Shown here piece after piece: positions 35,061 to 52,202 of a stretch of 64,000 nt of DNA. Position 1 is the stretch's first letter, and every line of letters starts with the position of its first letter. Made by a program: the position numbers and the translations under genes. Under the pieces are notes generated by a model. The model was given only the letters and a program-made list of their open reading frames with translations, was not told the DNA's origin and made no database searches. Where the stretch lies: NCBI GenBank assembly GCA_964508365.1, contig CAZDTP010000017.1:1-64000 (forward strand). Reading direction: 5' to 3'. This DNA is from an uncultured archaeon (GTDB taxonomy: Archaea; Asgardarchaeota; Lokiarchaeia; Sigyniarchaeales; SOKP01).

Positions 35061-35222
35061 ATCCTAAAATTAATGGTTTAAATGATAGACTAAATACTCA
35101 ATTTTAAATAATATTTTTCGATTTTAATGTCAATTTGTCCATGGAAATTTATTTCACAGAAAGTCTTAAATATAAAAAAAAGAAAAAGTTATTTTATGTT
35201 AATCTTCAGAACTGTTCTTGTC

Positions 35223-37337
35223 TTAAAAGGGGATTAATCCAAGACCACCGTTAAATAATAACAGTAATCCCATAAAGATCGATGCTGTCAAGGACATGAC
35301 TACTAATAATGTGTTAATACTTGGACCAGCAGTATCTTTGAAAGGGTCGCCTACAGTATCACCAGTAATTGCTGCTTTATGAACTTCTGTTCCTTTACCG
35401 CCAAGGTTGCCGTCCTCAATCCATTTTTTCGCGTTGTCCCATGCTCCTCCAGCGTTACTCATAAAGACAGCAAACACGAATCCAGAAAGAATTGCACCCG
35501 CTAAAAATGCACCCAAAGAAGCTACACCAAAAAGAATTCCAACACTAATAGGAATGGTTATCGAAATAATGCTTGGTATAATTAATTCGCGCAACGAGCC
35601 TTTAGTTGCAATATCAATCGTCTTTTGGAAATCAGCAGCTACTTCACCAGTTAGAATTTTTGGGTTTTCTTCAAATTGCCTTCGAATTTCATCAACCATT
35701 TTTGCAGCGTTTCGTTGAACAGCTAACACTAACAACGCTGAAAACAATGCTGGGACGACTACTCCAATGAAAGCGCCTATTAAAACGCCAACATTTAGTA
35801 AATCCATATTAGGAATATCAGCCTCTTCTGCAAAGGAAAAAAGGAGCGCCATTACAGTCAAATTGGCTGCTCCAATCGCAAAGCCCTTAGTGATTGCTTT
35901 AGCCGTGTTACCTGCGGAGTCTAATCGATCTGCTGTACGTATTACATCTTCACCTAAATCTCCTTGTTCTGCAATACCTCTAGCATTATCAACAATTGGT
36001 CCATAGGCATCGTTCGATACTATAGTTCCAACTATTGCTAACATTCCTACTGCCGCCATTGCTACTCCAAATACACCCGAGAGCCAATACGCTACTGCCA
36101 TCGCAATTATAATCCCTATTGCAGGAGGAACAACACTTAATAGACCATATGAAAACCCAGAAAGAATAACTACTGCGTGTCCTTCTTGAGCAGCATGAGC
36201 GATATTACTTGTAGGTTTCTTATCTTCTCTTGTAAAATAGTCGCTTGTAAATCCTAAAACAATTCCAGAGAAGAGTCCAATCGCTGAAGTTCCCCAAATT
36301 CGCCATAACAGCCCTACTTCTTCAGGTGTTAATCCAATTGCTAAGAGTAAGGTAAACAATGCTGATAATCCAAAATAGATTAGTGTGGCAAAATATGTTC
36401 CAGTGTTTAAAGCTTTTCCAGGTTCATCTGAACCTTTTAACTTTATGAAATATATTCCTATAAGTGAAGCTATTAAACCTACACCGCAAAGTACGAGAGG
36501 AGTAACTACAAGTACTCCCGTTCCTGCTTCTGTCAAAGTCACATTTCCTAATGGAGAACTGATAGTGCCAACTACACCAAATGCGGCTGCTAACATCATC
36601 GCCGCTACTATTGAAGCAACATAAGAGTCGAATAAATCACTTCCCATTCCAGCAATGTCACCTACATTATCACCTACATTGTCGGCAATTGTTGCAGGAT
36701 TTCGAGGATCATCTTCTGGAAGATCGTATTCAGCTTTTCCTACAAGATCTGCTCCTACATCTGCAGTTTTAGTAAAAATTCCTCCACCGCATTTCATAAA
36801 TAAAGCAATACTGCTTGCCCCAAAGCTAAATCCCAGGACAACATAGGGATCACCAAAAATCCAGTAAATAACAGAAACACCTATTAAAGCTACACCTACA
36901 ACTGTCAAACCCATTACGGAGCCTCCGAAAAAAGCAACATCAAATCCAGATTTTGTTCCTTTCGTACAAGCCTGTGCTGCTCTTGTATTTGCTTTAATTC
37001 CAACATACATACCTAACCATCCTGCTAACATCGATCCTGCTGAACCAATTAGGTAAGCAAGGGACTGTTCCCAATTTAATGAACCAGGGTGAATTCTTGA
37101 GGGTAATAAAAACAACATTATGAGAAAGAGAGCAGTTACAAATATAGTTAGAATTTTGTATTGGATTTTAATATAAGTTTTTGCCCCATCCTCGATATAC
37201 CCAGCGACTTCTTGCATTCTTTCATTTCCGGGATCTTCTTTAAGAACTAAATATCTGAAGTATAGAGCCATGCCAATGGAAATTATTCCAGCAATCAATG
37301 CAACGATTAAAATAATTGGTACCGCCATTTTTTTCAC
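35223..37337 (-). CDS. hppA: Membrane-bound ion-translocating pyrophosphatase, K+-independent type
   Basis: GGGIFTKTADVGADLVGK, EDDPRNPATIADNVGDNVGD, GNTAKA (Lys determinant), GDTVGDPFKDTAGP. Confidence 0.95.
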   Translation of the reverse strand: MKKMAVPIILIVALIAGIISIGMALYFRYLVLKEDPGNERMQEVAGYIEDGAKTYIKIQYKILTIFVTALFLIMLFLLPSRIHPGSLNWEQSLAYLIGSAGSMLAGWLGMYVGIKANTRAAQACTKGTKSGFDVAFFGGSVMGLTVVGVALIGVSVIYWIFGDPYVVLGFSFGASSIALFMKCGGGIFTKTADVGADLVGKAEYDLPEDDPRNPATIADNVGDNVGDIAGMGSDLFDSYVASIVAAMMLAAAFGVVGTISSPLGNVTLTEAGTGVLVVTPLVLCGVGLIASLIGIYFIKLKGSDEPGKALNTGTYFATLIYFGLSALFTLLLAIGLTPEEVGLLWRIWGTSAIGLFSGIVLGFTSDYFTREDKKPTSNIAHAAQEGHAVVILSGFSYGLLSVVPPAIGIIIAMAVAYWLSGVFGVAMAAVGMLAIVGTIVSNDAYGPIVDNARGIAEQGDLGEDVIRTADRLDSAGNTAKAITKGFAIGAANLTVMALLFSFAEEADIPNMDLLNVGVLIGAFIGVVVPALFSALLVLAVQRNAAKMVDEIRRQFEENPKILTGEVAADFQKTIDIATKGSLRELIIPSIISITIPISVGILFGVASLGAFLAGAILSGFVFAVFMSNAGGAWDNAKKWIEDGNLGGKGTEVHKAAITGDTVGDPFKDTAGPSINTLLVVMSLTASIFMGLLLLFNGGLGLIPF

Positions 37338-37687: not shown

Positions 37688-38578
37688 CTAAAGGCGAAGC
37701 GTATTGATTTCGTTATTATCAAATCCCCAAGAACGCAATATATTCTCTGCATTTTTAATCATTTCCTCGATTAATGTTTTCATCGGGATTATTTCATTAT
37801 GGTGTCCTATTGCCGTTGAAGGTGCCATAAAATTCTTTACATTATATTTGTATATTTTATTGTGAAAATTTTGCTCGGAAATATCTAATTGAAGCCATTT
37901 TTCTTTAATGTTTACTGGCACGGGGCATTCTATAGTAGTCATTAAAGCTGTACCTAAACAGACCGCATCAGCTCCCATTGCCAGAGCGCCTAAAAAACCT
38001 CTTGAGTCACCAATCCCACCAGCAGCAATAATCGGAATTTTGAGCATTTTTCTAGCTAAGGTTATATTAACCAGTGTAGTGTTTGTTTGTGGATTTTTAA
38101 ACCCAGTTCCTTCTAAACCAACCAAAGTAACTCCATCTGCACCTTCTTTTTCTGCTGAAATAGCATGCTTGATTAAAACGCATTTGTGGAACCATAAACC
38201 ACCCGCTTCATGAACTCTTTTTCCGATGAAAGAGGCTTTATATCCTGAAGTTGTAAAGATGCTACAATTTTCATTTAGAGCGATATCGACATAATCTAAA
38301 TACCTTTTTTTTGTTTTTTTACCTTCCTCGTTATCATTTAAGATATGATGCGGCATCGAGAGATTAATTCCAAAGGGTTTTGTAGTTAATTGCTTCATCT
38401 TTTGTATATCTTTCCTGAAGTCTTCTGGATCTGGAAAGTTTAGAGCTACGATAATTCCTAATCCACCTGCGTTTGAAAAAGTAGAAGCGAACTTAGATTT
38501 ACCCCACCCCCCGAATGCTCCCATTATAAGAGGGAATTCTATATTTAAAATCTGAGTTATTTTAGTTTTCCACTTCAT
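37688..38578 (-). CDS. Nitronate monooxygenase / FabK-like FMN-dependent oxidoreductase
   Basis: TQILNIEFPLIMG, AGGLGI, KPFGIN, PIIAAGGIGD.RG...ALAMGADAVCLGT. Confidence 0.85.
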   Translation of the reverse strand: MKWKTKITQILNIEFPLIMGAFGGWGKSKFASTFSNAGGLGIIVALNFPDPEDFRKDIQKMKQLTTKPFGINLSMPHHILNDNEEGKKTKKRYLDYVDIALNENCSIFTTSGYKASFIGKRVHEAGGLWFHKCVLIKHAISAEKEGADGVTLVGLEGTGFKNPQTNTTLVNITLARKMLKIPIIAAGGIGDSRGFLGALAMGADAVCLGTALMTTIECPVPVNIKEKWLQLDISEQNFHNKIYKYNVKNFMAPSTAIGHHNEIIPMKTLIEEMIKNAENILRSWGFDNNEINTLRL

Positions 38579-38615
38579 TTCGAGATCGTTATTATTTATT
38601 ATTACAATTTTGAAA

Positions 38616-40151
38616 TTAAAATCCTGAATCTCTCTTTGGAAATCTACTACGCGTAAGAGAGTATTCGTGGAACATTTTATCTAGAAGTTCTAATCTTAAA
38701 TCTCTATCTTTTTCCCATAAGTTATTAACTTCTTCTTTATCCTTATTTCGATCAAAGATGTCTCCATATCCTGGTATTTCCGCATATTTAGTTATTTTAT
38801 AATTTTTTGTTATTAAATGTATTAAGCGTGTATATAAAGGTCCATGTGGACCTACTTCTTCATCTTCTGTAATGAGAACAGAATCTCGCAGTTTTAATTT
38901 TGGATCTTTAAGAACAGGGGTCATATCATAACCTTGCATTCCGGGGGGTCTATATCGTTCTTTGATATTCAATAGCTCAAGAATGGTTTTGGGCATATCT
39001 ACTGAACTAATAAGAGCATCAGAAACTGATGGGTTAGTGATTCCAGGAATTCGCCATAATAATGGGATTTGTAGAGTACCGTTAAATGGAGAGATTCCCT
39101 TTAATATTAGACCGTGATCTCCCATATAATCACCGTGATCTGAAGTAAAAATCACCATTGTATTGTCTGCTAAACCTAATTTTTCTAAAGCTGCTAAAAT
39201 TTGACCTACTGCGAAATCAATTAAAGAAACAGAACCATAGCTAAGTGCAATGAACTTTCTTATAGTTGCCTCTGTTTCTTCGCGTAATAATGATCCTCTT
39301 ACGGGGGGATGTTCTAAGTGTTTTTTCAGATAAGGGTGTTTATATAAATTCTTTATATCGTTAATATTCTTAGGAAGTACCATTTCCTCTGGTTTATACA
39401 TATCTGCGTATTTACCTGGTGGAGAAACGGGTTGATGGGGGTCTGGAAACGAACAATGTAAAAAGAAAGGTTTTTCTCCATAGTTACCTTTAGAATACCT
39501 TTCTAAAAACGCTATGGTATTGTTCTGAATGTAAGTAGTATTATAAAGCTCTAAAGGAACCCAATTATCGTAAAAAATTTCCTGTGCTGGCACTGTAGTG
39601 GAATACTCCTTAACGATTCGCTCAGCAATCTTAGGGTTTTTTTCTTCTATCCATTCTAGATAGTGCCCTGAACATGCGTTTCCATGACCTATTACACAAT
39701 CCACTTCTTCAAAACCATAGTAGGGAATTGGAAAGTTCTTTCGCGTTAGATGATTACCAGTTGGGTTTTTCAAATACCAATCATAATTATCTTCCGCTGA
39801 TTTTGTTTTTGGATCGTATCTCGGTGTCCAAGTATTATAATGAGTTTTACCAATAGAGATTGTATGATAACCTCTGTTAACTAGGGTTTGAGTAATTGTA
39901 GGTACATTTTCAGGCAAGTTTATCCCATTACTGCGCACTCCATGAACATTGGGATAGTAACCAGTCAGTATTGTAGCTCGGTTAGGCATACACATAGGGG
40001 ATGTGCAGAATGCATTAGAAAAACGTACACTCTCGCTTGCAAACCTGTCTAAGTTGGGAGTTTTAATTATTTTATTACCAGAACACCCCATCATGTCAGC
40101 TCGCTGCTGATCAGTTATAATAAATAAGACATTCATTTTTTCTTTCGTCAT
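38616..40151 (-). CDS. Formylglycine-dependent sulfatase (paralog of 3967..5547)
   Basis: FIITDQQR, CMPNRATILTG, GKTH, DPHQP, TSDHGDYMGDHG. Confidence 0.9.
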   Translation of the reverse strand: MTKEKMNVLFIITDQQRADMMGCSGNKIIKTPNLDRFASESVRFSNAFCTSPMCMPNRATILTGYYPNVHGVRSNGINLPENVPTITQTLVNRGYHTISIGKTHYNTWTPRYDPKTKSAEDNYDWYLKNPTGNHLTRKNFPIPYYGFEEVDCVIGHGNACSGHYLEWIEEKNPKIAERIVKEYSTTVPAQEIFYDNWVPLELYNTTYIQNNTIAFLERYSKGNYGEKPFFLHCSFPDPHQPVSPPGKYADMYKPEEMVLPKNINDIKNLYKHPYLKKHLEHPPVRGSLLREETEATIRKFIALSYGSVSLIDFAVGQILAALEKLGLADNTMVIFTSDHGDYMGDHGLILKGISPFNGTLQIPLLWRIPGITNPSVSDALISSVDMPKTILELLNIKERYRPPGMQGYDMTPVLKDPKLKLRDSVLITEDEEVGPHGPLYTRLIHLITKNYKITKYAEIPGYGDIFDRNKDKEEVNNLWEKDRDLRLELLDKMFHEYSLTRSRFPKRDSGF

Positions 40152-40261
40152 AATAATAATCTCCTAATTTGTTGTTATGAGTAAATTTTAATCCTACATT
40201 AGAAAAAACAAAATCAGTAATAAAATTTTCAATATTGAGGGAAGAAAAAAAAGACTCTAAC

Positions 40262-41140
40262 TTATAAGTGGAATTCAGTAATTTTTGGAACAGAATCCAC
40301 TTTAGGAAAAATCACTCTTGGAACAGGAGGAGCACTATTATAGATTTCCTCAATCTCGATAACTCCAAACTTGATTCCTCTAAATTTTTCAAATCCTGTA
40401 AAAGTTCCTTTTACAACTTGATTATAAAAATCAAAATTCATGCCAAACACAGCCACTTTTGAATCCACTGGAATTTGATATAAATCTTCTTTCAATATTG
40501 AAGGAGGAAACACCAATCTGTTATAATCAGCAGCTTGAAGTTGAATAGAAGGAATCATAGTCGGATACCCATCAGCAGGGTCTATATAAGAAATTACCCT
40601 GACCGCGATAGGTGCAGCAAATAATTTGTATCCAAGGACATTTAGACGCTTTTCGTCAATTTTTGTTTTCGCTCCGCCTTTCCCAATCATATCCTTAATT
40701 ATTCCTTTTACAATACCAAATAAGGGTAAATTTCTTACAGGTGTAGCAGCTACTATGTTATTATAGTACGCTGTATGAACTCTTATATAGGTAAAGTATC
40801 GCATCAATTGTGATTGGTTAAAATGTTCTAAATCTTCACCTTCCTTTGTAATATGGCTAAAATCTGCTTTAACTTGAAGGAACTTAAAGGGTATTTCGGT
40901 ACTCATGTAGAAAATTCCTTGCTTCGGTCTCTCTTTAACGTATTGCTTACTCAAACCCTCAGTAAAAGCCCCCCATGCTATTTTGTCTTTACTTATTGCC
41001 CGATTACTCGCAATTAGAGTAATATGGGGCCAACCTCGATCGTCTATAGTGGAGACTAACTTAAGCATTATATCTGGTTGAGTAAATTCTATACCTTCGT
41101 CAGATATTTCGGATGACCATTCAACTTTATTTTTTCCCAT
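40262..41140 (-). CDS. Tandem FMN-binding split-barrel (pyridoxamine 5'-phosphate oxidase-like) protein
   Basis: Two repeats of LVSTIDDRGWPHITL / VISYIDPADGYPTMI followed by similar beta patterns. Confidence 0.65.
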   Translation of the reverse strand: MGKNKVEWSSEISDEGIEFTQPDIMLKLVSTIDDRGWPHITLIASNRAISKDKIAWGAFTEGLSKQYVKERPKQGIFYMSTEIPFKFLQVKADFSHITKEGEDLEHFNQSQLMRYFTYIRVHTAYYNNIVAATPVRNLPLFGIVKGIIKDMIGKGGAKTKIDEKRLNVLGYKLFAAPIAVRVISYIDPADGYPTMIPSIQLQAADYNRLVFPPSILKEDLYQIPVDSKVAVFGMNFDFYNQVVKGTFTGFEKFRGIKFGVIEIEEIYNSAPPVPRVIFPKVDSVPKITEFHL

Positions 41141-41156
41141 TTTATATCATCTTATA

Positions 41157-42131
41157 TTAATTTTCTTCAGCATGTTCAAGATCTTCTTGTTTTTTCGTTA
41201 ACCCAGACCATTGAACATTCTTAACGCCACTTTTTTTGCCAATCTCTATATATTCGTCCATTTTATCTGAGGAAATTAGAGGAAAGTCCTTTAGGGACCA
41301 ATCCATATCTAATCTTTCATATTTAGCTGTACATAAGTTATTGAACGACAGCAAGTCCCATCTTTCTGGAATGTTATGTAACTTGTTAACTATAAATTCT
41401 CCAATTCCTTTAACATTTTTCTCTGTCGCAGTATAATTTGGAATAATGGGAGTTCGAATCCACAGTTTCTTACCATTGTCTTTCACATAATTCGAAATCC
41501 AGATGGCATTTTCCAATATGAGGGTATTCGGAACGCCGGTGTATTCCTTATGTTTTTCAGAATTAATCTCCTTAATATCAAGGAGGATCAAATCAACATA
41601 GGGAAGTAATTTCTGATAAATATTCTTGGAAGCGTATCCGCAAGTGTCTAAAGCTGTTGAGATACCATTATTTTTGCATTTTTTTAAAAAATCCAAAATA
41701 AAATCGGACTGGAGCGTAGGTTCACCCCCTGAAACTGTAATACCGCCATGAGATTGGGTGTAGTAGACTTTATCTTTTTGAATTTCGTAATATAAATCCT
41801 CTAAATCCCATAATTCTCCAAACATATGTAAAGCAGTACTAGGGCATTCTTCTGAGCACAAACCGCAACTATCACACTTATCTCTGTCGATATGCATCCC
41901 ATCTTCATCGAGTAATAATGCTCCCTTTTGACATGTTTCGATACAAATTTTACATCCAATACATTTATGTTTAAACCATTCTAATTGCTTCTTTTTTAGA
42001 ATTGATTCTGGATTGTGGCACCATATACATTTTAAAGGGCACTGCTTAAAAAAAACTGTTGTTCTAATCCCGGGTCCATCTTCAGTGGACATCTTTTGAA
42101 TCTGAAAAATCAGAGCTTTAGATTCTGCCAT
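41157..42131 (-). CDS. Glycyl-radical enzyme activating enzyme (radical SAM, 2x[4Fe-4S] ferredoxin insert)
   Basis: DGPGIRTTVFFKQCPLKCIWCHNPE, CIGCKICIETC, CDSCGLCSEEC, GGITVSGGEP. Confidence 0.95.
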   Translation of the reverse strand: MAESKALIFQIQKMSTEDGPGIRTTVFFKQCPLKCIWCHNPESILKKKQLEWFKHKCIGCKICIETCQKGALLLDEDGMHIDRDKCDSCGLCSEECPSTALHMFGELWDLEDLYYEIQKDKVYYTQSHGGITVSGGEPTLQSDFILDFLKKCKNNGISTALDTCGYASKNIYQKLLPYVDLILLDIKEINSEKHKEYTGVPNTLILENAIWISNYVKDNGKKLWIRTPIIPNYTATEKNVKGIGEFIVNKLHNIPERWDLLSFNNLCTAKYERLDMDWSLKDFPLISSDKMDEYIEIGKKSGVKNVQWSGLTKKQEDLEHAEEN

Positions 42132-42457
42132 TTTAAATAGATTTTAAGCTGATTATTAAATAACAAAAGTCTTGGAGCTAATTTAATTTTATTAATTGTA
42201 GTATAAAATATTAATAGAGATTAAAAATTAAAAAATTTTATATCAAGCACATAATCTGCAAGGCTTAGAATAATATTGATACTAGACTAATAAATTGGAT
42301 AAGAATTAATTCATTTGAAAAAGGAAAGTATCTATAGTTATTTCTTGCTTACTTAACTTTTACATGCAATCATTGTGTTTATCCCCCATGTGTGACCTTA
42401 AAATTTAATTATATTCAAAAAAGTCTTTATTTAATAGACAATTAATACAAATACTAC

Positions 42458-42928
42458 TTGAAAATCTTAGTGAAAAAATATATGGTTGCTGAGAATTATT
42501 CTGGATTTGTCCAAAGATATAATATGATGATTGGAGTTCTAATAAGTGCCTTATTAACAAACATCTTGTTCTTAATTTTACCAATTGCAATTTTCGTTAT
42601 AGCAGATATATTTTTAGTTATAGGAAGCTGTACTGGACTCTATTTCACATTTAAATATAGAAAAGAATCACAATCATACATTAAAACAGGTATAATTGTT
42701 GGATTGACTGGTTCAGTTTTATCATTATTATTAATAGGTTGCTTTGATTGGATTTTTTATTTGATACCCGTATATGGATTTGATTTTATTCTCTTATTAG
42801 AATATATATTAGTCTTATTCATGTATTACGGAATAATTTTCGCGATAGTTGGGACGATATTAGGTTATATTTTTGGGAGCGTTTATAGAAAGAGAGAAGT
42901 TAGAAATAATGAATCTCCTCTATTTTAA
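42458..42928 (+). CDS. Hypothetical membrane protein (about 4 TM helices)
   Basis: Hydrophobic segments; the true start may be ATG 42482. Confidence 0.6.
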   Translation: MKILVKKYMVAENYSGFVQRYNMMIGVLISALLTNILFLILPIAIFVIADIFLVIGSCTGLYFTFKYRKESQSYIKTGIIVGLTGSVLSLLLIGCFDWIFYLIPVYGFDFILLLEYILVLFMYYGIIFAIVGTILGYIFGSVYRKREVRNNESPLF

Positions 42929-42990
42929 ATAAATTTTTTTTGATCTTCACCTTATTAAATATAATAACATAACAAACAAGGAGATTAAAA

Positions 42991-43815
42991 GTGTCTGAAC
43001 AATACTTTGAACATATTAAAATCGAAAGAATTGGAGAAGGAAATTACTTAGTAATTTCAATTAATCGCCCTGAGAGGCTAAATGCTTTACAAAATAAAAC
43101 TTTAAAAGAGATTGCAGATGCTCTCGAATCAATGGCTTTAGATAAGTCAGTTAGATGCGTAGTTCTAAGAGGTACTAAAGAATTCATTAAGAAACCAGCA
43201 TTTTCTGCTGGTGCTGATTTATCAGCTAGAGGAAACCTTGAAATCGATCCAATAAATTTAATGGATCAGAGCCATGCGATGTATTTAAGACATAAATACT
43301 ATAATATTATAGAAGAATTTCCAAAACCTTTAATAGCTGCTGTAGATGGTTATGCTTTAGGTGGTGGATTTGAGCTAGTATTAGTATGTGATATTATAAT
43401 CGCATCAAAACGTTCTACATTTGGTTTTCCAGAAATAACACGAGGAATTGCTCCCTTCAATGGAGGAACACAGAGATTAATTAGGAGTTTAGGGAAAATA
43501 AGAACCAAATCAATGATCTTTTTCGGAGAACATTATTCAGCCGAAGTTATGTATAATTGGGGTTTAGTATCATTTTTGGTTGATAATGATAAATTTGAAG
43601 AGGTTGTCCATGAGAAGGCAGCTTGGTTAGGAAATGCTGCAACCAAAAGCTTATTTGTCATTAAAAAGGCTATAGATTATGGAACTCAAGCTCCGCTAAA
43701 TCTGGGACTTCAATTTGAGCATTTGGGTTATGCTGTTAATTCGCAATCAAAAGATGTAAACGAAGGAGTGACCGCATTCTTACAAAAAAGAAACCCTAAA
43801 TTTACTGGCGAATAA
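42991..43815 (+). CDS. Enoyl-CoA hydratase (crotonase)
   Basis: INRPERLNAL, AFSAGAD, GYALGGGFEL, FPEITRG, EGVTAFLQKR. Confidence 0.92.
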   Translation: MSEQYFEHIKIERIGEGNYLVISINRPERLNALQNKTLKEIADALESMALDKSVRCVVLRGTKEFIKKPAFSAGADLSARGNLEIDPINLMDQSHAMYLRHKYYNIIEEFPKPLIAAVDGYALGGGFELVLVCDIIIASKRSTFGFPEITRGIAPFNGGTQRLIRSLGKIRTKSMIFFGEHYSAEVMYNWGLVSFLVDNDKFEEVVHEKAAWLGNAATKSLFVIKKAIDYGTQAPLNLGLQFEHLGYAVNSQSKDVNEGVTAFLQKRNPKFTGE

Positions 43816-43846
43816 TAAAAAAAAATAATTATTTTTTTATTTAATT

Positions 43847-45022
43847 TCAAACCATTTTAACAAACTTACCTGTTTTTAATAATTCACAAGGTTTTAAAGA
43901 AGATTTTCCTAACTTTTCAGAATATTCTTCTAAAAGTTCAGATAATTCTTTGTAGTGCTCAGTCGCATATTTCATTGGTCCCGAAAAGTTCATGCCAGCT
44001 AAAATCGCTTCATCTATAACTTTCCAACTATTAACAACACCTTCTTCTAATATTCTGCAGCCTTCGTTTGCATTGATTGCTGTAAACACTAAACTATTTA
44101 CTAAGCCTGCTTTTTTAGAAAGATCGGGTTGTGGTCGTCCTTTAGACCAATCATAGAAGCCCTGACCAGTCTTTTTTCCTAGTTTACCTTCATTATATTG
44201 CATCGTGAGAACTTTACCCGGTTTATAATCAGGTGAAAGTTTCTCAGCATAATATAAACCGCCGTTATACGCGATATCTCTCCCTGTGAAATCTGCCAAT
44301 GTAAGAGCTGACATTGGGGCGTTAGGACGTGATAGATCTGCATCTACTTGTTCCCATGGGATTCCTTGTTCATAAGCAAGATCGATTATATAGTTTGAAT
44401 ATATAGCGCTGGGAGATAGAACGCGGTTAACAATAAATCCAGGACGAGATTTTAAAACTAGGGCGACGTAACGTTCTCCTCTTAAACAAGGCAGTGATTC
44501 TGCCACTTTAATCCCGATTTCTATTGATTCATCGGAACTCTTATCACCTTTTATTACTTCAATTAAACGCATCAAAGGAGCAGGATTAAAGAAGTGCATT
44601 CCAATTACATTTTGTGGTTTCCCACAATTTTGCGCAATTTCAGTGATACTTATTGTAGAGGTATTAGAAGCAAAAATACAATGATCTGGAGAATACTCGA
44701 TTACATCTTTGCAAAGCTTTTGCTTAACATCTAATTTTTCAACCACGGCTTCTATAACTAAATCGGCGCCTTTAGAAGCTTCAATCAAATCCTTACTTAC
44801 ACTCAACCTTGAGAAAGTTTCAGCTGCTGAAGCGCCCTCTGGTAATTTTCCTTTAGATTCAAGCTTTTCAAAACCTATCTTATTATAATCTAAACCTTTT
44901 TGTATCAATTCGTCATTAATATCAACCGCAACAACATTATATCCCGCCATTAAGCTAACTTGGGCAATTCCTTTACCCATATCTCCAAATCCAAGCATAA
45001 CAATATTTTTTACTTTAGTCAT
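43847..45022 (-). CDS. 3-hydroxyacyl-CoA dehydrogenase
   Basis: GFGDMGKGIAQ, EAVVEKLDVK, ASNTSTISIT, GMHFFNP, GFIVNR. Confidence 0.92.
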   Translation of the reverse strand: MTKVKNIVMLGFGDMGKGIAQVSLMAGYNVVAVDINDELIQKGLDYNKIGFEKLESKGKLPEGASAAETFSRLSVSKDLIEASKGADLVIEAVVEKLDVKQKLCKDVIEYSPDHCIFASNTSTISITEIAQNCGKPQNVIGMHFFNPAPLMRLIEVIKGDKSSDESIEIGIKVAESLPCLRGERYVALVLKSRPGFIVNRVLSPSAIYSNYIIDLAYEQGIPWEQVDADLSRPNAPMSALTLADFTGRDIAYNGGLYYAEKLSPDYKPGKVLTMQYNEGKLGKKTGQGFYDWSKGRPQPDLSKKAGLVNSLVFTAINANEGCRILEEGVVNSWKVIDEAILAGMNFSGPMKYATEHYKELSELLEEYSEKLGKSSLKPCELLKTGKFVKMV

Positions 45023-45147
45023 AATTCTTTTTCATCCTAGTTTGGTTATTTTTCAATATTTAACAATAATTTAAAGTATTATATAATAAAATTTTAAATT
45101 TTATACTGTATTAAATTATTAACATTATTAGGCTCAAAATTTAAAAA

Positions 45148-46428
45148 GTGATAAATGTGAAAGAAGTATGGCTAATTGATTACGCCCGTACACCATTTTC
45201 TAGGTCGAGACCAACTCAACCAGAGAGGGATGTGTTTGGGGAAATAAGAGGAGATGAACTCCTTGCTGAATTATTAATGAAATTCTTTGATGGTAAATTA
45301 GCAGAAAAAGGAATAGAGAAAAAAGACATAGAGGAGGTATCAATAGGAGTTGCTTCGGGAGTATTGGAAAATTGGACCTATGGAGGACGTGGTCCTCTGT
45401 TCTTATCAGGATTTCCTTATGAAGTTCCGTCGTTTTTTATCGATAGACAATGCGCTTCAGCAGGATCTGGGATGCATGTGGGTATCATGGAAATCATGAC
45501 GGGGAATAGTAATTGCGTATTGGCCACAGGGTTTGAACATATGACGCGCGTTCGCGGGATAGGGATAGATCGTAATTATTCGACAGAAGATAAGGAAAGT
45601 AAGTTTTATAGACCCGAATTAGATCTACAAACTTCATTTAATATGCTACAAACAGCCCAAAAATTGTACGAAGAAGAAATTCCTACATTTACCAAAGAAG
45701 ATTTAGATAAATTTGGAGTAAGAAGTCATAATCTCACAATCAAAAGTCAGGAAAATGGGTATTATAAAGGCGAAATCATAGGAATTGAAGGTCATGCTCC
45801 TGGTAATGTTGAAGAGAAAATGTTTATCGATAGAGATATGAATCCCAGAAAATCAACTTTAGAAGGAGTGTCTGGACTGCGACGATTGGCTCAACCTTTC
45901 TTCTTAGAGAAAAATGGGGGGAAAGAAGGGTATATAAAGAGAGAGGGTACAGAAGAAGGCGTAATTACAGCGGGTAATTCATCTCCTTTAAACGCAGGTG
46001 CTACAGCAGCAATTTTAATGGAAGCAGAAGAAGCTAAGAAAAGAAAAATTGAGCCTATGGCTAAAATTGTTTCAATGGGTTGGGCTGGTGTCGATCCTAC
46101 TGTAATGGGAAGAGGTCCAGTCCCTGCTACTCAGAAAGCGTTAAAACAGGCAAATCTCACTGTAGATGATATCGATTACTGGGAGATTAACGAAGCTTTT
46201 TGCATCGTTGCGTTAAATTGTATGAATACATTCAATATCCCTGAAGAAAAAGTGAATATTATGGGAGGATCTACTGCTATAGGACACCCATTAGGTGCTA
46301 CACTGATACGATTAACTGGTACTCTTGCAAGAATTTTAAAAGAAAAGAAGGCAAGATATGGTGTTGCTAACGCGTGTGTCGGAGGCGGACAGGGAGTTGC
46401 TACAATTATTGAAAATCTCGATATATAA
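45148..46428 (+). CDS. Acetyl-CoA C-acyltransferase (thiolase)
   Basis: RQCASAG (nucleophile Cys), NEAF, AIGHPLG, CVGGGQG. Confidence 0.95.
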   Translation: MINVKEVWLIDYARTPFSRSRPTQPERDVFGEIRGDELLAELLMKFFDGKLAEKGIEKKDIEEVSIGVASGVLENWTYGGRGPLFLSGFPYEVPSFFIDRQCASAGSGMHVGIMEIMTGNSNCVLATGFEHMTRVRGIGIDRNYSTEDKESKFYRPELDLQTSFNMLQTAQKLYEEEIPTFTKEDLDKFGVRSHNLTIKSQENGYYKGEIIGIEGHAPGNVEEKMFIDRDMNPRKSTLEGVSGLRRLAQPFFLEKNGGKEGYIKREGTEEGVITAGNSSPLNAGATAAILMEAEEAKKRKIEPMAKIVSMGWAGVDPTVMGRGPVPATQKALKQANLTVDDIDYWEINEAFCIVALNCMNTFNIPEEKVNIMGGSTAIGHPLGATLIRLTGTLARILKEKKARYGVANACVGGGQGVATIIENLDI

Positions 46429-46456
46429 CCTATATCTCAATAATTATTTTCTGAAT

Positions 46457-48958
46457 TTACATTGAATGCGATTCTCGCGCTATAATTTCATCTTGTAGTT
46501 CTTTTCCAATGGCGTTAAAATAAGCATTATAACCAGTAATCCGAACTAAGAGATTAGTATAGTTTTCTGGATGTTTTTGGGCATCTTTTAACATTTCAAC
46601 ATCAAGCATATTTACCTGTAAACAAGTTCCTCCGTTTTCAATGTATCCTTTTAAATACGATTTAAATTTTTCTTTATGTTCTGGATTCTTAAGAATAGCT
46701 GGATTGAATGTAATCGTATGACTTGCCCCGTTAGGTAAAAAATTTATATATTCACCATCTTCTGTTTTTCCCCCTAAAGCTATACCTACAGAATTAGTTA
46801 CAGCCGTAGGACCTTTTAAATCTGCTCCAGTTGACGGACATATTGCGTTAGAAAGAAAAGTTCCCATTTTTCGACCATCTGGAGTAGCAATTGTTAAACT
46901 AGCGTCAGCTCCAGCCCAATAATTCCATGAAAGCATGCCAGGTCGAAATTGAAAATCTGTAGGAGTTTTGTACTTCCAGGTTTCATCAGCCCACACTTTC
47001 ATTACTTTTTGAGCTAACTCATCAGCATCATCGACATCGTTTCCATACTTAGGCGCTCTATTTTTTAAGAAGGTTTGAATCACAGCGTATTCATTGCCCT
47101 CAAAATCGTTAATCAAGGCATCTTTAAATTGAGATATGGTGTATTTCTTATCGTCGTAAACATATTTTTTAATCGCCAATAAAGAGTCGACGGTAGTAGC
47201 AAAACCAACGCCCTCAACTGTTATAAATCTTAACTCAGGACCGCCACGTCTAATGTCTAATCCTTTTTCAATACATCCTTGAACTAACGTTGATAAATAA
47301 GGAGTGGGTAAATATTCTGCTCTAAGAGATTCAGTTAAATTATATGTGTCTACGGTGTATTTAATGAGAAATTCTACTTGTCTTTTCCACGCATTCCAAA
47401 ATTCTTCCCAAGTTTTAAAGATTTCAGAATTACCCGTTTTTGGGCCGACTTGCTCGCCCTTCTTGGTAGCAACATCATTACCGGGCATGTTCTTTCCGTT
47501 CCAAAGCGTTAATTCAATGCTTTTTGTTAGATTTGGATTGCAATTCACGGTACCAGATCTATCGTTTCCTTGCATTGTATTTTCTAAACATCCAACGCAT
47601 GCGTAATCCCAAGCATCTTCTTGAGATATACCCTCTGCAATCATACCTGCAATACTTCTCTCGTCGAAATTTATAAGAATTGGGGCTCCTTGCGATCGAG
47701 AAACCATATCAACTATGATATTTAACAATTTCTCAGGAGAATTTCTATGTAGTCTAACATTTGGCTTTGGTTCTAAGATTGGAGACCATTCATCAACAAC
47801 TTCCAGAATAGTATAAGTCAATTCGTTAGTCAAATCTTCGCCATTAGGACCACATCCACTAAGGGTCATCAATTGACCGAACGCCGAAGTAATTCCCTGC
47901 TTTCCTACTTTGATTTGAGCATCGTAAGCAGTGTTGCAATGAAACCAGAAACTACCTAAAATATCTTTGGCAAAATCTTTCGAAATATTTCTTTCATCAA
48001 TCACGTCTTTTTTATATAAATCCCAGAGGTGTTGATCTGTCCTACCAAAGGAAGTACCAGGACCAGGGTAAGATTCTTCTGCCATAATAAGCATGTGAGT
48101 TAACCAAATCGCTTGTATTCCTTGCCAAAAAGTCTCGGCAGGCTCCCAAGGAACTTTTTCAAGGTTTTTAGCCATTTGTTCTAGTTCTTTTATTCTTTCA
48201 GACGATGTTGCTTTTTCTTTAAGTCTTCTACATTCTTCAGCATATTTTTGAGCAAATTTTCTTGGTATCTCTGAAGCGTTTAGCATTGCTCTTAATTCTT
48301 GACCTTTAGAACCTTTTTTTTCTCGTTCTGACAATTGTTCATATTGAGCTTTTGTTTTTTCATGTATAAACTTGAAACCTTTTTTGATTATGGTTTCGTG
48401 ATCTGGGATAAGATGTCCTCCCGTTGCTCCTGTATTTCCAAACCCTGATTTATGAAATTTGTAAAATTTATGTCTAATGCTCAAATTTTCCTTCCAATAT
48501 TTTTTAGTCTCATTTTCTTTTAAACTATCGCTCAATTGAGTATTAAATCTGCCACCAGCAATTAAATCGTTCTCAGAAATGATCTCGTGAGGTATATAAT
48601 CAAGCATGACCGTTTCAAAAAATTTTATTTTACGTTCCGGTAAAGATAAATCCCAGAAACCATCAGGCAGTGATACTGGAATAGCTATAGATCTTAAACA
48701 TCCCTCAAAAACTCCTTTGCCTTTATTTCCTATGTAAAAATAAATCTCAGGAGTGACGTAATAATCAGATTCGCACCAAATTATATCCCAATCTGTGCCA
48801 GTAGTGAAAGACATGTATTCGTTATTCCACTCGCGTTCAACTCCTTTGAAGTAATAATCCCTTAACCATTTCGATCTTTTGGATAAATGATAAGGCTCAG
48901 CGATATTAAATTTTGGTTCTTCTTTCTTTATTTCTGTTCTATGATCTAAGTCGCTCAT
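46457..48958 (-). CDS. Glycyl radical enzyme of unassigned subfamily (PFL2/eliminase-like)
   Basis: 833 aa; single-Cys loop ACVGCLE; C-terminal glycyl loop LLVRITGYNAYF; no PFL-type adjacent Cys-Cys pair. Confidence 0.92.
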   Translation of the reverse strand: MSDLDHRTEIKKEEPKFNIAEPYHLSKRSKWLRDYYFKGVEREWNNEYMSFTTGTDWDIIWCESDYYVTPEIYFYIGNKGKGVFEGCLRSIAIPVSLPDGFWDLSLPERKIKFFETVMLDYIPHEIISENDLIAGGRFNTQLSDSLKENETKKYWKENLSIRHKFYKFHKSGFGNTGATGGHLIPDHETIIKKGFKFIHEKTKAQYEQLSEREKKGSKGQELRAMLNASEIPRKFAQKYAEECRRLKEKATSSERIKELEQMAKNLEKVPWEPAETFWQGIQAIWLTHMLIMAEESYPGPGTSFGRTDQHLWDLYKKDVIDERNISKDFAKDILGSFWFHCNTAYDAQIKVGKQGITSAFGQLMTLSGCGPNGEDLTNELTYTILEVVDEWSPILEPKPNVRLHRNSPEKLLNIIVDMVSRSQGAPILINFDERSIAGMIAEGISQEDAWDYACVGCLENTMQGNDRSGTVNCNPNLTKSIELTLWNGKNMPGNDVATKKGEQVGPKTGNSEIFKTWEEFWNAWKRQVEFLIKYTVDTYNLTESLRAEYLPTPYLSTLVQGCIEKGLDIRRGGPELRFITVEGVGFATTVDSLLAIKKYVYDDKKYTISQFKDALINDFEGNEYAVIQTFLKNRAPKYGNDVDDADELAQKVMKVWADETWKYKTPTDFQFRPGMLSWNYWAGADASLTIATPDGRKMGTFLSNAICPSTGADLKGPTAVTNSVGIALGGKTEDGEYINFLPNGASHTITFNPAILKNPEHKEKFKSYLKGYIENGGTCLQVNMLDVEMLKDAQKHPENYTNLLVRITGYNAYFNAIGKELQDEIIARESHSM

Positions 48959-49211: not shown

Positions 49212-50159
49212 ATGGAACTACAAGAGTATAAATGTGAAGTTCTAATAATAGGAGCAGGACCAGCGGGATTAAGTGCTGCTGTTTATTGCGGTAGAACAAA
49301 TAGAAATACGATTGTATTAGAAGGAAAAGAACCTTCCTCGCTAGCGAAGACGCAAGAGATTCATAATTGGCTAGGAGAAATTGATGTAACTGGATTGGGT
49401 CTTTTGGAAAAGTTTAAAAAGCACGCCGAAAGCTATGAAAGCGTTAGGATAATGAATGGAGATGTTATCGTATTAATGTTAGGGATGGGAACGAACATGA
49501 TTTCTACGAGAACGACAAACATCACTGCTGATGTTGTAGTTATTGCCACGGGCACAGGGAAACGAAAAGAAATCATAAAAGGGGAAGATACTTTACTTGG
49601 ATATGGAGTTTCCTACAGTGCATTATGGGATGGACCGTCATACAAAGATAAAGTAGTATATTTATACGGAAAAGACGAAGAAGTGATGGAAGACGCTTTG
49701 GCTCTAAATCAGATGGGATGTATAGTTCATGTTATTACTGATGTGGGAATTGAAGAACTACCTGAAAAGGTTTATGAAGTTATAGATACTGGAATTAAAG
49801 TTATTGAGAAGATGGAAGTAATTGAAGCAGTTCCAGCTTCGGAAGGTATGATTCAAAAAATATTATGTAAATCTACTGAGCCTGAATCAGAAGATATTGA
49901 AAAAATAGAAGAATTTGAATTAAGTTGTTTATTTATATTATCTCATATATTTTCTAATTCAATTTTTAAGAAAGCTGGGGTAGAATTAGATGATATGAGA
50001 AATATTAAAGTGGATGACGAACAAAAAACAAACCTTAAAGGAGTTTATGCTGCTGGTGATTGTACGGGAGGACTTTTTCAAGTAGTTTTTGCTGCAGCAG
50101 AAGGTGCACGAGCGGGAATAAATGCTTGCAAATATCTTCGTCAATTAAAGAAGGAGTAA
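49212..50159 (+). CDS. TrxB-like FAD oxidoreductase lacking the redox CxxC
   Basis: GAGPAG, ATG, GVYAAGD are present, but the sequence reads GVSYSALWDG where CxxCDG is expected, and there is no GGGxxA NADPH motif. Confidence 0.8.
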   Translation: MELQEYKCEVLIIGAGPAGLSAAVYCGRTNRNTIVLEGKEPSSLAKTQEIHNWLGEIDVTGLGLLEKFKKHAESYESVRIMNGDVIVLMLGMGTNMISTRTTNITADVVVIATGTGKRKEIIKGEDTLLGYGVSYSALWDGPSYKDKVVYLYGKDEEVMEDALALNQMGCIVHVITDVGIEELPEKVYEVIDTGIKVIEKMEVIEAVPASEGMIQKILCKSTEPESEDIEKIEEFELSCLFILSHIFSNSIFKKAGVELDDMRNIKVDDEQKTNLKGVYAAGDCTGGLFQVVFAAAEGARAGINACKYLRQLKKE

Positions 50160-50264
50160 AAACATAGAATTTAATTAATCAATATAAATCTAAAAAAAAT
50201 TTAAACTATTATTAAGATTATTATAAGTAATTTGAATAAAGCGACAAAATAATGGAGACTAAAA

Positions 50265-51209
50265 GTGTCTGATAAAAATGATTTTGACCTAATAATTATT
50301 GGTGGTGGACCTGCGGGATTAACAGCTGCAATTTATGGGGGAAGAATGGGTTTAAAGACTGCTCTTTATGAGGGTACAGGCTTTGGAGGTTTAGCCGGGA
50401 CAGCTCCCAAAATTGAAAATTATCCCGGATTTGAGAGTATCCACGGTCTTGAATTAACTGAAAAAATGAGGAAACAAGCTGAAAATTGGGGAGCTACCTT
50501 TTTTTACAATAAAGTCTCAGCAATTAATCCAAAAGAAATGACGGTAACTACACCTGAAGGTGATAAAAAAGCAAAAGCTATTATAATTGCTACTGGTTCG
50601 AAACATTTATCACTTGGATTGCCTAATGAATTTGATTTAATAGGTAACGGAATATCTTACTGTGCTACTTGCGATGGGCCTTTATTTCGAGATCAAGTAG
50701 TTGCTACGGTTGGTGGTAGTAATGCCGCTGGTCTAGAGGTAATTTATCTTTCAGGTGTAGCAAAAAAAGTTTACCTTATTCATAGACGTCACTGTATGCG
50801 AGCAGAAGCATGTATTGTAGATGAGGTTGATTCATTACCTAATGTTGTACCAATGTATAATTGCACTATTGAAGAAGCTATACCTAAAGATAACAAATTA
50901 GGAGAACTAAAAATTAAAAATATTGAAACTGGCGAAATAACCAATATAAGTGTAAATGCTCTTTTTATTGCTATAGGAGTTGAGCCACAGAGTGATTTAG
51001 CGAAGAAGGCAGGGATAGAACTTGATAAGGATAATAATATTAAAGTTGATAAAAATCAGGAGACAAACCTTCCTGGTATATATGCGGCAGGAGATGTAAC
51101 TGGTGGAATACGACAGGTAACCACTGCTACTGGTGAAGGGACCACAGCCGCTATGAATGCGTATCTTTTCATCAAACAAGGTTGGTATGGAGAAGGGTTA
51201 AAAAAATAA
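50265..51209 (+). CDS. trxB: Thioredoxin reductase
   Basis: GGGPAG, ENYPG, GISYCATCDG, GGSNAAG, IHRR, GIYAAGD. Confidence 0.92.
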   Translation: MSDKNDFDLIIIGGGPAGLTAAIYGGRMGLKTALYEGTGFGGLAGTAPKIENYPGFESIHGLELTEKMRKQAENWGATFFYNKVSAINPKEMTVTTPEGDKKAKAIIIATGSKHLSLGLPNEFDLIGNGISYCATCDGPLFRDQVVATVGGSNAAGLEVIYLSGVAKKVYLIHRRHCMRAEACIVDEVDSLPNVVPMYNCTIEEAIPKDNKLGELKIKNIETGEITNISVNALFIAIGVEPQSDLAKKAGIELDKDNNIKVDKNQETNLPGIYAAGDVTGGIRQVTTATGEGTTAAMNAYLFIKQGWYGEGLKK

Positions 51210-51218
51210 ATGCCTTTC

Positions 51219-51268
51219 TGATATTACCTGCATATTACATCGTATTATGTAATATCACGATGTTATAT
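51219..51268. repeat. Nested inverted-repeat array immediately upstream of xerA; 9-6-9 core ATATTACAT-CGTATT-ATGTAATAT at 51232-51255
   Basis: Four copies of ATATTAC(AT): + at 51221 and 51232, - at 51247 and 51260; also ATATTACATCGT/ACGATGTTATAT (11/12) and TGATATTAC/GTAATATCA inverted pairs. Confidence 0.8.
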
Positions 51269-51275
51269 TTTTATT

Positions 51276-52202
51276 ATGATAGAATACAAGGTTTCGGATT
51301 TCATCGACGATTTTTTAATTTCGAAGGAAGTAGAAGAAGGATGCGCACCATCAACGATAAAAGCATATCGATATGATCTTGAGAAATTTATTAGTCTCGT
51401 TGGTGATCTGAACCTTGAGTCGCCAATGCTTAGACAGCGGATTAGACTTTTTTTAAAACAACTTAAAGATTTAAATTACACAAAAAAAGGGATCAGCAGA
51501 AAAATCGCCTCTTTAAGGTCTTACTTTAAGTTTTTAACTTTAAATGAATTTATATCTAAAAATCCAATGACAACGATTAAATCTCCTAAAATTAAGATAG
51601 AGGAAAGTTTACCAAAATTCCTTAATGTTGCGGAAATTGAGGTAATTTTTAACAAGTTAAAAGATAAAAAACTGTTTAACTCCAAGAAGAGCCAGAGATA
51701 TTATTTAATTGTAAGATTACTTTATTCTACGATGGCTCGTGTTAGTGAGCTGTGCGACATCCAAATCAAAGATATTGATTTTAACAAAGGCTACATAAGA
51801 TTAAAAGGGAAAGGTAGTAAAGAGAGGATTGTTCCTGTGGATTATAACACATTAAATCTTTTCAACGAGTATCTAGAAAATCGAATATCTTACAACACCG
51901 AAGATTATCTTTTAGTCAATACACGATACCAAAAATTAAATCCCAGAGTAGTCCAAGTAGATATTAAAACAATTAAAGAGAAGTGCGGTTTCCCAGATTC
52001 AAAAATAATAACACCTCATGTCTTCAGACATACGGGTGCTACTCACCTAAGGCGTTCCGGAATGGATATTAGTGAATTACAAGACATACTGGGGCACAGC
52101 TCTCCAAATACAACAAGAATCTACGCAAAGAACGATATCACTCAACTAAGGCAGTCTTATTCGAAAATGCATCCTTTAAACAATAGCGATTTAAATCTAT
52201 AA
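51276..52202 (+). CDS. xerA: Xer-family tyrosine recombinase
   Basis: Core-binding domain (STIKAYRYDL..RKIASLRSYFKF); catalytic R (ARVSEL), K (KGKGSKER), HxxR (HVFRH), H (LGHS), Y (TRIY). Confidence 0.92.
   Translation: MIEYKVSDFIDDFLISKEVEEGCAPSTIKAYRYDLEKFISLVGDLNLESPMLRQRIRLFLKQLKDLNYTKKGISRKIASLRSYFKFLTLNEFISKNPMTTIKSPKIKIEESLPKFLNVAEIEVIFNKLKDKKLFNSKKSQRYYLIVRLLYSTMARVSELCDIQIKDIDFNKGYIRLKGKGSKERIVPVDYNTLNLFNEYLENRISYNTEDYLLVNTRYQKLNPRVVQVDIKTIKEKCGFPDSKIITPHVFRHTGATHLRRSGMDISELQDILGHSSPNTTRIYAKNDITQLRQSYSKMHPLNNSDLNL

Follow-up and report, generated by a model that had tools for sequence, protein, structure and literature searches.

A glycyl radical enzyme, its activase and a tandem split-barrel protein form a conserved gene trio in Asgard archaea and bacteria

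Introduction

This analysis concerns a locus at positions 37688-48958 of a 64,000-nucleotide stretch of DNA (hereafter the window: positions 1 to 64,000 of contig CAZDTP010000017.1, assembly GCA_964508365.1) from an uncultured Asgard archaeon of the Sigyniarchaeales. Three of its genes encode a glycyl radical enzyme (GRE), a GRE-activating radical S-adenosylmethionine (SAM) enzyme (the activase) and a 292-residue protein, here called U292. Together they are a conserved, uncharacterised three-component GRE system shared by Asgard archaea and bacteria, and the locus probably encodes a system of the eliminase type in which U292 works with the GRE itself. GREs perform key anaerobic reactions: known members with a Cys-x-Glu (CxE) active site convert choline to trimethylamine, dehydrate hydroxyproline and convert isethionate to sulfite, and GREs also activate hydrocarbons.

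A first-pass annotation of this DNA, made from the letters alone, had named the genes, and the list of open reading frames (ORFs) and domain scans place all of them at the coordinates it gave. The three core genes are:

46457-48958, minus strand: GRE, 833 amino acids (PF02901 426 bits, PF01228 77 bits)
41157-42131, minus strand: activase, a radical SAM enzyme (TIGR02494 318 bits, cut-off 174)
40262-41140, minus strand: U292, a tandem PNPOx-like split-barrel protein of 292 amino acids (no match in Pfam or NCBIfam; fold from an AlphaFold2 (AF2) model)

Results

The GRE matches no characterised family

The GRE consists of a barrel like that of pyruvate formate lyase (PFL) and a glycine-radical domain, with a glycyl site (RITGY) that contains the invariant G809. 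Its Cys loop (VGCLENTMQGNDR) includes VGCLEN, with C457 and E459; both residues of this GCxE loop are invariant in 37 sequences from archaea and bacteria. Also invariant is H182, the equivalent of H164 in glycerol dehydratase, and the invariant motifs of the family include FWFHCNTAYDA, PILEPKPN, VGCLENTMxGNDRSGTV and RPGMLSWNYW. The N-terminal ~175 residues are specific to the family, and nothing in the GRE matches the first ~150 positions of the PFL-like profile. The activase carries the expected CxxxCxxC motif (CPLKCIWC) plus two ferredoxin-like Cys motifs and is thus of the ferredoxin-insert type.

Every NCBIfam equivalog scores the GRE below its cut-off. The known eliminases HypD, CutC, IslA/HpsG, HplG and YbiW/PflD share its fold and CxE catalytic logic, but the equivalog scores of 350-390 bits fall far short of cut-offs of 1000-1100 (HypD 390 against 1100, HpsG 378 against 1000, CutC 352 against 1050); further scores within the HypD, CutC, HpsG-HpfG and arylacetate decarboxylase set are 351 against 1000, 277 against 1100 and 202 against 1150 bits, and the PFL2-3 subfamily model gives 430 against 678. 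Comparison of the AF2 model (predicted local distance difference test, pLDDT, 83) with the solved eliminases (glycerol and propanediol dehydratases, CutC, HypD, HplG, IslA, HpsG and YbiW/PflD) places it equally far from all of them, at template modelling (TM) scores of 0.73-0.78 and 22-26% identity.

The best match in the Protein Data Bank is B12-independent glycerol dehydratase (1r8w, 340 bits). This enzyme (DhaB1, with its activase DhaB2, from Clostridium butyricum) and 1,2-propanediol dehydratase (5i2a/5i2g, 9rco) are also the top fold matches (TM 0.77-0.78), and they share with the GRE system a ten-stranded barrel, the GCxE loop, the His164 equivalent, an RVxGY-type site and a ferredoxin-insert activase. 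The structural alignment nevertheless shows only ~25% identity, and the diol-binding residues are mostly replaced: H281/S282, D447 and Y640 of glycerol dehydratase correspond to P300/G301, V471 and L676, with H164 alone retained (as H182). D278 of HypD is likewise G299. A further difference is that a conserved third protein (U292) goes with this GRE, whereas we know of no conserved third protein for the GRE diol dehydratases. The possibility raised at first pass, that the enzyme falls in a characterised cluster with all its substrate residues, thus did not hold up. Judged from profile scores and the modelled fold, the GRE appears as an uncharacterised single-Cys CxE enzyme that matches no characterised family; its chemistry would be a 1,2-elimination, and its substrate may be an anionic or hydroxylated small molecule.

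Existing labels say otherwise. Homologs carry the source name 'pyruvate formate lyase family', 2-oxoacid-formate lyases have been invoked in strain MK-D1 (Imachi et al. 2020, PMC7015854), and Zhang et al. 2021 (PMC8163825), going by 29-33% identity, called single-Cys GREs of Asgard archaea alkyl- or benzylsuccinate synthases (Ass/Bss). That the GRE is a pyruvate or 2-oxoacid formate lyase, or an alkyl/benzylsuccinate synthase, is however almost inconceivable given the following. The VGCLE loop lacks the adjacent Cys-Cys pair, TIGR01255 (PFL) gives 96 bits against a cut-off of 994, and PFL structures align to the C-terminal 220 residues only, all in keeping with the initial assignment to the single-Cys CxE type. 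Against solved GREs it scores 213 bits with MasD and 159-211 bits with BssA, compared to 260-340 bits with the eliminases; the activase reaches 186 bits against the BssD cut-off of 496; and no small Fe-S ORFs occur in the conserved trio in the loci mapped in Asgard archaea and bacteria. HpdB/C, too, score lower than the eliminases. To our knowledge, HpdB/C and the X-succinate synthases (BssABC, the MasD complex) are the only GREs that need extra co-inherited polypeptides. These small subunits are short Fe-S proteins: U292, in contrast, is a tandem split barrel of 292 residues with no conserved Cys.

The trio is conserved across Asgard archaea and bacteria

Scanning one genome per species yielded 80 loci, 54 from Asgard archaea and 26 from bacteria (individual loci carry the prefix L below). 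The three genes stand side by side in 26 of the 54 Asgard loci, and many of the others are truncated contigs. Among the bacteria, which comprise rumen Clostridia, Oscillospiraceae, Desulfobacterales, Chloroflexia and Myxococcales, the activase follows the GRE in all 26 loci and U292 comes next in 24. Conservation of the GRE is strong, with identities of 65-94% for the Asgard loci and 52-56% for the bacterial ones (52-55% by tblastn, 53-56% by alignment); bacterial U292 is 26-38% identical to that of the window.

Sampling of 300 Asgard genomes, with GRE orthologs detected by the family-specific N terminus, shows the same association: 52 genomes contain orthologs of both GRE and U292, six of the GRE only and three of U292 only. 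Three GTDB-style families account for most of them: orthologs of the GRE and of U292 are found respectively in 50 and 48 of 68 genomes (f1), 6 and 5 of 6 (f2), and 2 and 2 of 11 (f29); about three quarters of the sampled genomes from the window's own Asgard family carry the GRE family. Co-occurrence of the split-barrel gene with the GRE, anticipated at first pass, is therefore near-universal in these genomes and in the bacterial loci. In a distant Asgard clade (mainly family f9), where the GRE is 45% identical, a U292-like gene was detected in 21 cases, each time on the strand of the GRE and 3.3-3.8 kb downstream of it. Loci L104-L106 have the order GRE, activase, U292-like gene, followed in L105 and L106 by GNAT and MFS genes (with an ACT gene between in L105).

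In a quick tree, rooted at its midpoint only, the bacterial GREs make up one clade, whose sister group is the Asgard orthologs; the distant Asgard clade falls outside. The system is not peculiar to Asgard archaea: the bacterial sister clade (Clostridia, Desulfobacterales, Chloroflexia, Myxococcales) possesses the same trio. A search of the available literature library, which covered GREs with a sulfatase or with a split barrel, found no description of this GRE family.

The only bacterial neighbors that recur are a GntR/FCD regulator, present in 11 loci, and, each in some of the loci, an FNR-like reductase and FAD enzymes of the amine-oxidase-like kind. In Clostridia the large ORFs that precede the trio are unrelated to each other and so give no clue to the substrate.

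Two side observations concern individual groups of loci. In another Asgard clade (L021-L037 and relatives, for example L022:7783-9896 and L023:5963-8654) the trio sits amid genes for biosynthesis of methanopterin-type (H4MPT) pterins: upstream are DUF1464 and pterin-binding DUF4346 genes, downstream a DUF447 gene, an archaeal dihydroneopterin aldolase and a GHMP-kinase-like gene, with rubrerythrin and two radical SAM genes also near. Because bacterial hosts have no such genes nearby, we read this synteny as clade-specific. Contig DATKTW010000103.1 (L009), labelled 'Candidatus Nanopelagicaceae bacterium', has the Asgard gene order, and its proteins, XerA, GRE and thiolase among them, are 94-98% identical: most probably an Asgard contig has been mis-binned here.

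U292 is a tandem split barrel found only beside this GRE family

The tandem split-barrel fold proposed from the sequence is borne out by the AF2 model (pLDDT 89.6). Residues 1-140 resemble FMN-binding split barrels (3in6, Swol_0183, Z 14.1), and other matches to this half, at Z 11-14, are HupZ, PNPOx-like proteins, the Desulfovibrio vulgaris FMN-binding protein and F420 reductases. Aligned to each other with hhalign (probability 90%, E 1.5e-6), the two halves prove to be related, the C-terminal one being a diverged copy of the N-terminal one; their motifs are GWPH-I-T and DGYP-x-x-I-P. U292 thus shares with PNPOx-like FMN split barrels (3in6, the D. vulgaris protein, HupZ and F420-dependent FDORs) the fold of its N-terminal half and the G-x-P-H strand motif, but known proteins of this kind are homodimers of ~120-150 residues, whereas U292 contains two diverged barrels in one chain. 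Invariant positions are H39, G62, R114, P193, P197, G245, Y267 and P271. Two-domain matches of the PilZ type returned by Foldseek were dismissed (rmsd 15-19 A).

The family is small and free-standing: in a set of 1.84 billion representatives it accounts for 456 clusters (at 50% identity). None of its members among the matches listed is longer than 337 residues, and a search for fused or longer forms found none, although this is weak evidence. While the window's protein has no Pfam match, a distant family member reaches 31.6 bits with PF01243 (cut-off 28.1), and in related Atlas clusters 28-38% of the members carry PF01243. U292 is found only beside this GRE family. Since Clostridia share the U292 family, the cofactor would more likely be FMN, FAD or heme than F420.

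U292 as a partner of the GRE or of the activase

Copy numbers in the window's own genome bear on which protein U292 serves. The genome encodes eight PF02901 GREs (L001-L008; contigs C4, C34, C50, C132, C1, C36, C17 and C71) and only two activases above cut-off, yet GREs of this family and U292 genes both number exactly two. In the second pair (L098; C71:3901-11105) the GRE is followed directly by U292, and no activase is present on the contig; its GRE is 70% and its U292 49% identical to those of the window. The other activase in the genome (on C36) has no U292. In the ortholog of the second pair, L099, GRE and U292 again stand without an activase, L042 and L107 have GRE-U292 with no activase between, and in L100 the order is GRE, U292, activase. 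Together, the copy numbers and the second pair favor U292 as partner of the GRE and suggest that it serves this enzyme rather than the activase.

If U292 were instead a dedicated low-potential flavin electron donor to the activase, filling the role of a flavodoxin, then the 16-bp gap between the two genes, the presence of a Desulfovibrio FMN-binding electron carrier among the closest folds, and the persistence of activase-U292 in the window's clade, where the GRE has become separated (by 4.3 kb in the window and by 53 kb in genome G110), would all find an explanation. We nevertheless regard this as rather unlikely, because the second U292 lies beside the second GRE with no activase on its contig, the C36 activase lacks a U292, and three further loci (L042, L099, L107) show GRE-U292 with no intervening activase. 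Moreover, Clostridia and Desulfobacterales possess generic ferredoxins and flavodoxins, and keep U292 despite them.

Other features of the own genome deserve mention. With 1302 bits (cut-off 1100), L001 is a genuine HypD. L005 and L006 have a GCVD loop without the Glu and match no equivalog; a simple RVxG-type pattern search finds no glycyl motif in either. The C71 pair has a divergent winged helix-turn-helix regulator upstream, and after its U292 come a 135-residue ORF, an oppositely oriented sulfatase of the SGSH_C type and a sugar transporter (MFS_2, GPH-type). Neither this sulfatase nor the transporter is conserved in the two orthologous loci that were checked, and for this reason they are not counted as strong support.

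A sulfatase and an NMO-type flavoenzyme are family-level additions

Downstream of U292 in the window lie two further genes on the same strand:

38616-40151, minus strand: cytoplasmic Cys-type formylglycine sulfatase (PF00884 172 bits; CMPNR motif)
37688-38578, minus strand: short FMN TIM-barrel oxidoreductase of the NMO/FabK family (PF03060 125 bits)

Gaps are short (37 bp between NMO gene and sulfatase, 110 bp between sulfatase and U292), and a 326-bp AT-rich region lies upstream of the activase, the first gene of the unit activase-U292-sulfatase-NMO. The sulfatase is of the S1 type, as indicated by its PF00884 score, the CMPNR signature and a maturase (anSME) encoded on contig C67 of the same genome (392 bits against a cut-off of 349). 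It has no signal peptide. The label 'FMN reductase' first given to the last gene was right as to a flavoenzyme but imprecise: the protein is a short NMO/FabK-family TIM barrel that scores 127 bits against the FabK equivalog TIGR03151 (cut-off 453), and the profile match spans only positions 2-247 of 331.

Sulfatases at least 63% identical to the window's are present in 22 of the 300 sampled Asgard genomes (23 if that of the window is included), and the module is found in every one of these. The orthogroup adjoins the module in 22 genomes (the window's own counted), mostly after U292, and before the GRE in genomes G148 and G277 and in loci L022, L024, L026 and L043; paralogs of at most 61% identity are located elsewhere in genomes. 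Orthologs of the NMO gene (68-81% identical) follow the sulfatase in both arrangements (L022, L040, L041, L044, L056, L102). The expectation that the sulfatase would be linked to the GRE module in other genomes is thus confirmed for a specific orthogroup, usually with the NMO gene, across one Asgard family. Evidence for functional coupling of the sulfatase (usually with NMO) to the module in this family is moderate, and the two genes are a family-level add-on to the trio.

Unrelated sulfatase-family genes (~28% identical) also occur beside the module in L046 (Thorarchaeota), in L032, in L076 (Clostridia) and at the own second pair. The one after U292 in L076 was considered as an ortholog and rejected: at 28% identity to the window's sulfatase it reflects independent recruitment or chance.

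The beta-oxidation genes are an insertion

The interval of 4325 bp between GRE and activase is occupied by a block of genes (42458-46428, mixed strands) that is outside the conserved module:

42458-42928, plus strand: membrane ORF, 156 amino acids, four-helix
42991-43815, plus strand: crotonase (domain scans)
43847-45022, minus strand: 3-hydroxyacyl-CoA dehydrogenase (domain scans)
45148-46428, plus strand: thiolase (domain scans)

The three beta-oxidation genes had been recognized at first pass, but the membrane ORF had been missed. Similarly, the strands given for the activase, U292, sulfatase, NMO gene and GRE (all minus) were correct, while crotonase and thiolase proved to be on the plus strand and only the dehydrogenase on the minus: alternation of strands places the trio of beta-oxidation genes outside the minus-strand run.

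A block between GRE and activase exists only in L009-L019 and is absent from all other module loci. The thiolase adjoins the GRE only in L009-L016, L018 and L019 (GRE 83-94% identical); L017 ends at the GRE. In L018 and L019, the deepest of the block loci, the interval contains a second NMO-family gene besides the thiolase and nothing else. The loci L041 and L056 consist of Xer, TrxR-like genes, GRE-activase-U292-sulfatase-NMO and PPase (H+-pyrophosphatase): this is the window's flanking order minus the block (L056 has both TrxR-like genes, L041 only n1, as defined below). That the same flanks exist without the block argues for a single insertion into the GRE-activase spacer and not for a pathway; a single lineage-specific insertion, local and recent, is the simplest reading.

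The first-pass annotation had proposed that the whole 11-kb array is one pathway: desulfation, then radical elimination, then entry of an acyl-CoA into the bracketed beta-oxidation. The thiolase is indeed tail-to-tail with the GRE across a 28-bp gap, and adjoins it in every non-truncated locus with GRE identity of at least 83%. Such a pathway is nonetheless highly improbable: the block is missing from every other module locus, one insertion event explains all its occurrences, its genes alternate in strand, and domain scans reveal no acyl-CoA ligase, CoA-transferase or aldehyde dehydrogenase that would link a GRE product to CoA chemistry.

The second NMO-family gene is full-length (350-353 residues, 26-29% identical to the window's NMO) and occupies the GRE-activase interval, in the same orientation as the module, in the closest relatives of the window: L013, L015, L016, L018 and L019 (for example L019:3899-4960); the window itself lacks it.

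Flanking genes

On the other side of the GRE, and divergent from it, are:

49212-52202, plus strand: two thioredoxin-reductase-like (TrxR-like) flavoproteins (Pyr_redox_2) and XerA

The flavoproteins (315 and 314 residues, at 49212-51209) stand in tandem beside xerA and are syntenic with the GRE genus-wide. They could be electron suppliers of the ferredoxin/flavodoxin-NADP reductase type, or mere neighbors. The order Xer-n2-n1-GRE (n1 and n2 being the TrxR-like genes) is seen in L011, L013, L014, L017, L056 and others, as well as in L041 with n1 alone, and this upstream synteny marks the ancestral locus. After the NMO gene come the H+-pyrophosphatase and an MFS_1 transporter (33735-37337); the former is syntenic in L040, L041, L044, L056 and L102, and MFS_1 genes 28-31% identical also come after the trio in the distant Thor-type loci L104-L106.

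Discussion

Gene content, folds, synteny, co-occurrence and the position of the GRE outside known families are direct observations, and the reading that best accommodates them, which we consider probable, is that of a three-component eliminase-type GRE system in which U292 acts with the GRE. The activase would put the radical onto the GRE, where it would be stored on G809; catalysis would proceed through a thiyl radical on C457 with E459 as general base. U292, a presumed cofactor-binding tandem split barrel without Fe-S motifs, may be a subunit of the GRE or an enzyme that handles its product. In the genus the ancestral order was presumably Xer-TrxR-like-GRE-activase-U292-sulfatase-NMO-PPase; the acyl-CoA gene block would have entered the GRE-activase spacer in the window's sub-lineage, leaving the GRE monocistronic and activase-U292-sulfatase-NMO as a separate unit. 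In this Asgard family the cytoplasmic sulfatase probably provides the substrate by removal of a sulfate ester, and the probable role of the NMO-type flavoenzyme is to reduce a product.

Several observations weigh against this reading. The active-site loops of the GRE model are of low confidence. In the window's clade it is the GRE that has been displaced while U292 has stayed with the activase, which fits a partner of the activase equally well. Bacterial loci have no conserved sulfatase or NMO gene. Adjacency of the sulfatase is almost entirely confined to one family, so that the genomes are not independent, and module genomes hold many sulfatase paralogs: relatedness and paralogy both weaken the link between sulfatase and module.

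A bolder form of the proposal is that U292 is an obligate flavin or heme subunit that gives this GRE clade a new chemistry (for example elimination plus a redox step), with Promethearchaeaceae using an organosulfate-derived metabolite freed by the sulfatase. We put this forward only tentatively and would not expect it to be correct in full. If true, it would affect the interpretation of Promethearchaeum syntrophicum MK-D1 (L049/L089/L090), in whose genome a search recovers just two PF02901 genes. The loop of one is HypD-like (GCVEVG); the other is an ortholog of the present family (69% identical) and has activase and U292 genes downstream. The Cys-Cys pair of PFL is missing from both, and the published '2-oxoacid-formate lyase' route is therefore without a canonical enzyme. 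With this enzyme as one of the only two GREs of MK-D1, that formate-yielding route would need to be re-read.

We know of no GRE for which a co-inherited partner protein other than an Fe-S protein has been described. The family is routinely mislabelled as PFL or Ass/Bss in the metabolic reconstructions that lie behind scenarios of eukaryogenesis: identification of its substrate would put those models right and could bring to light a new type of reaction.

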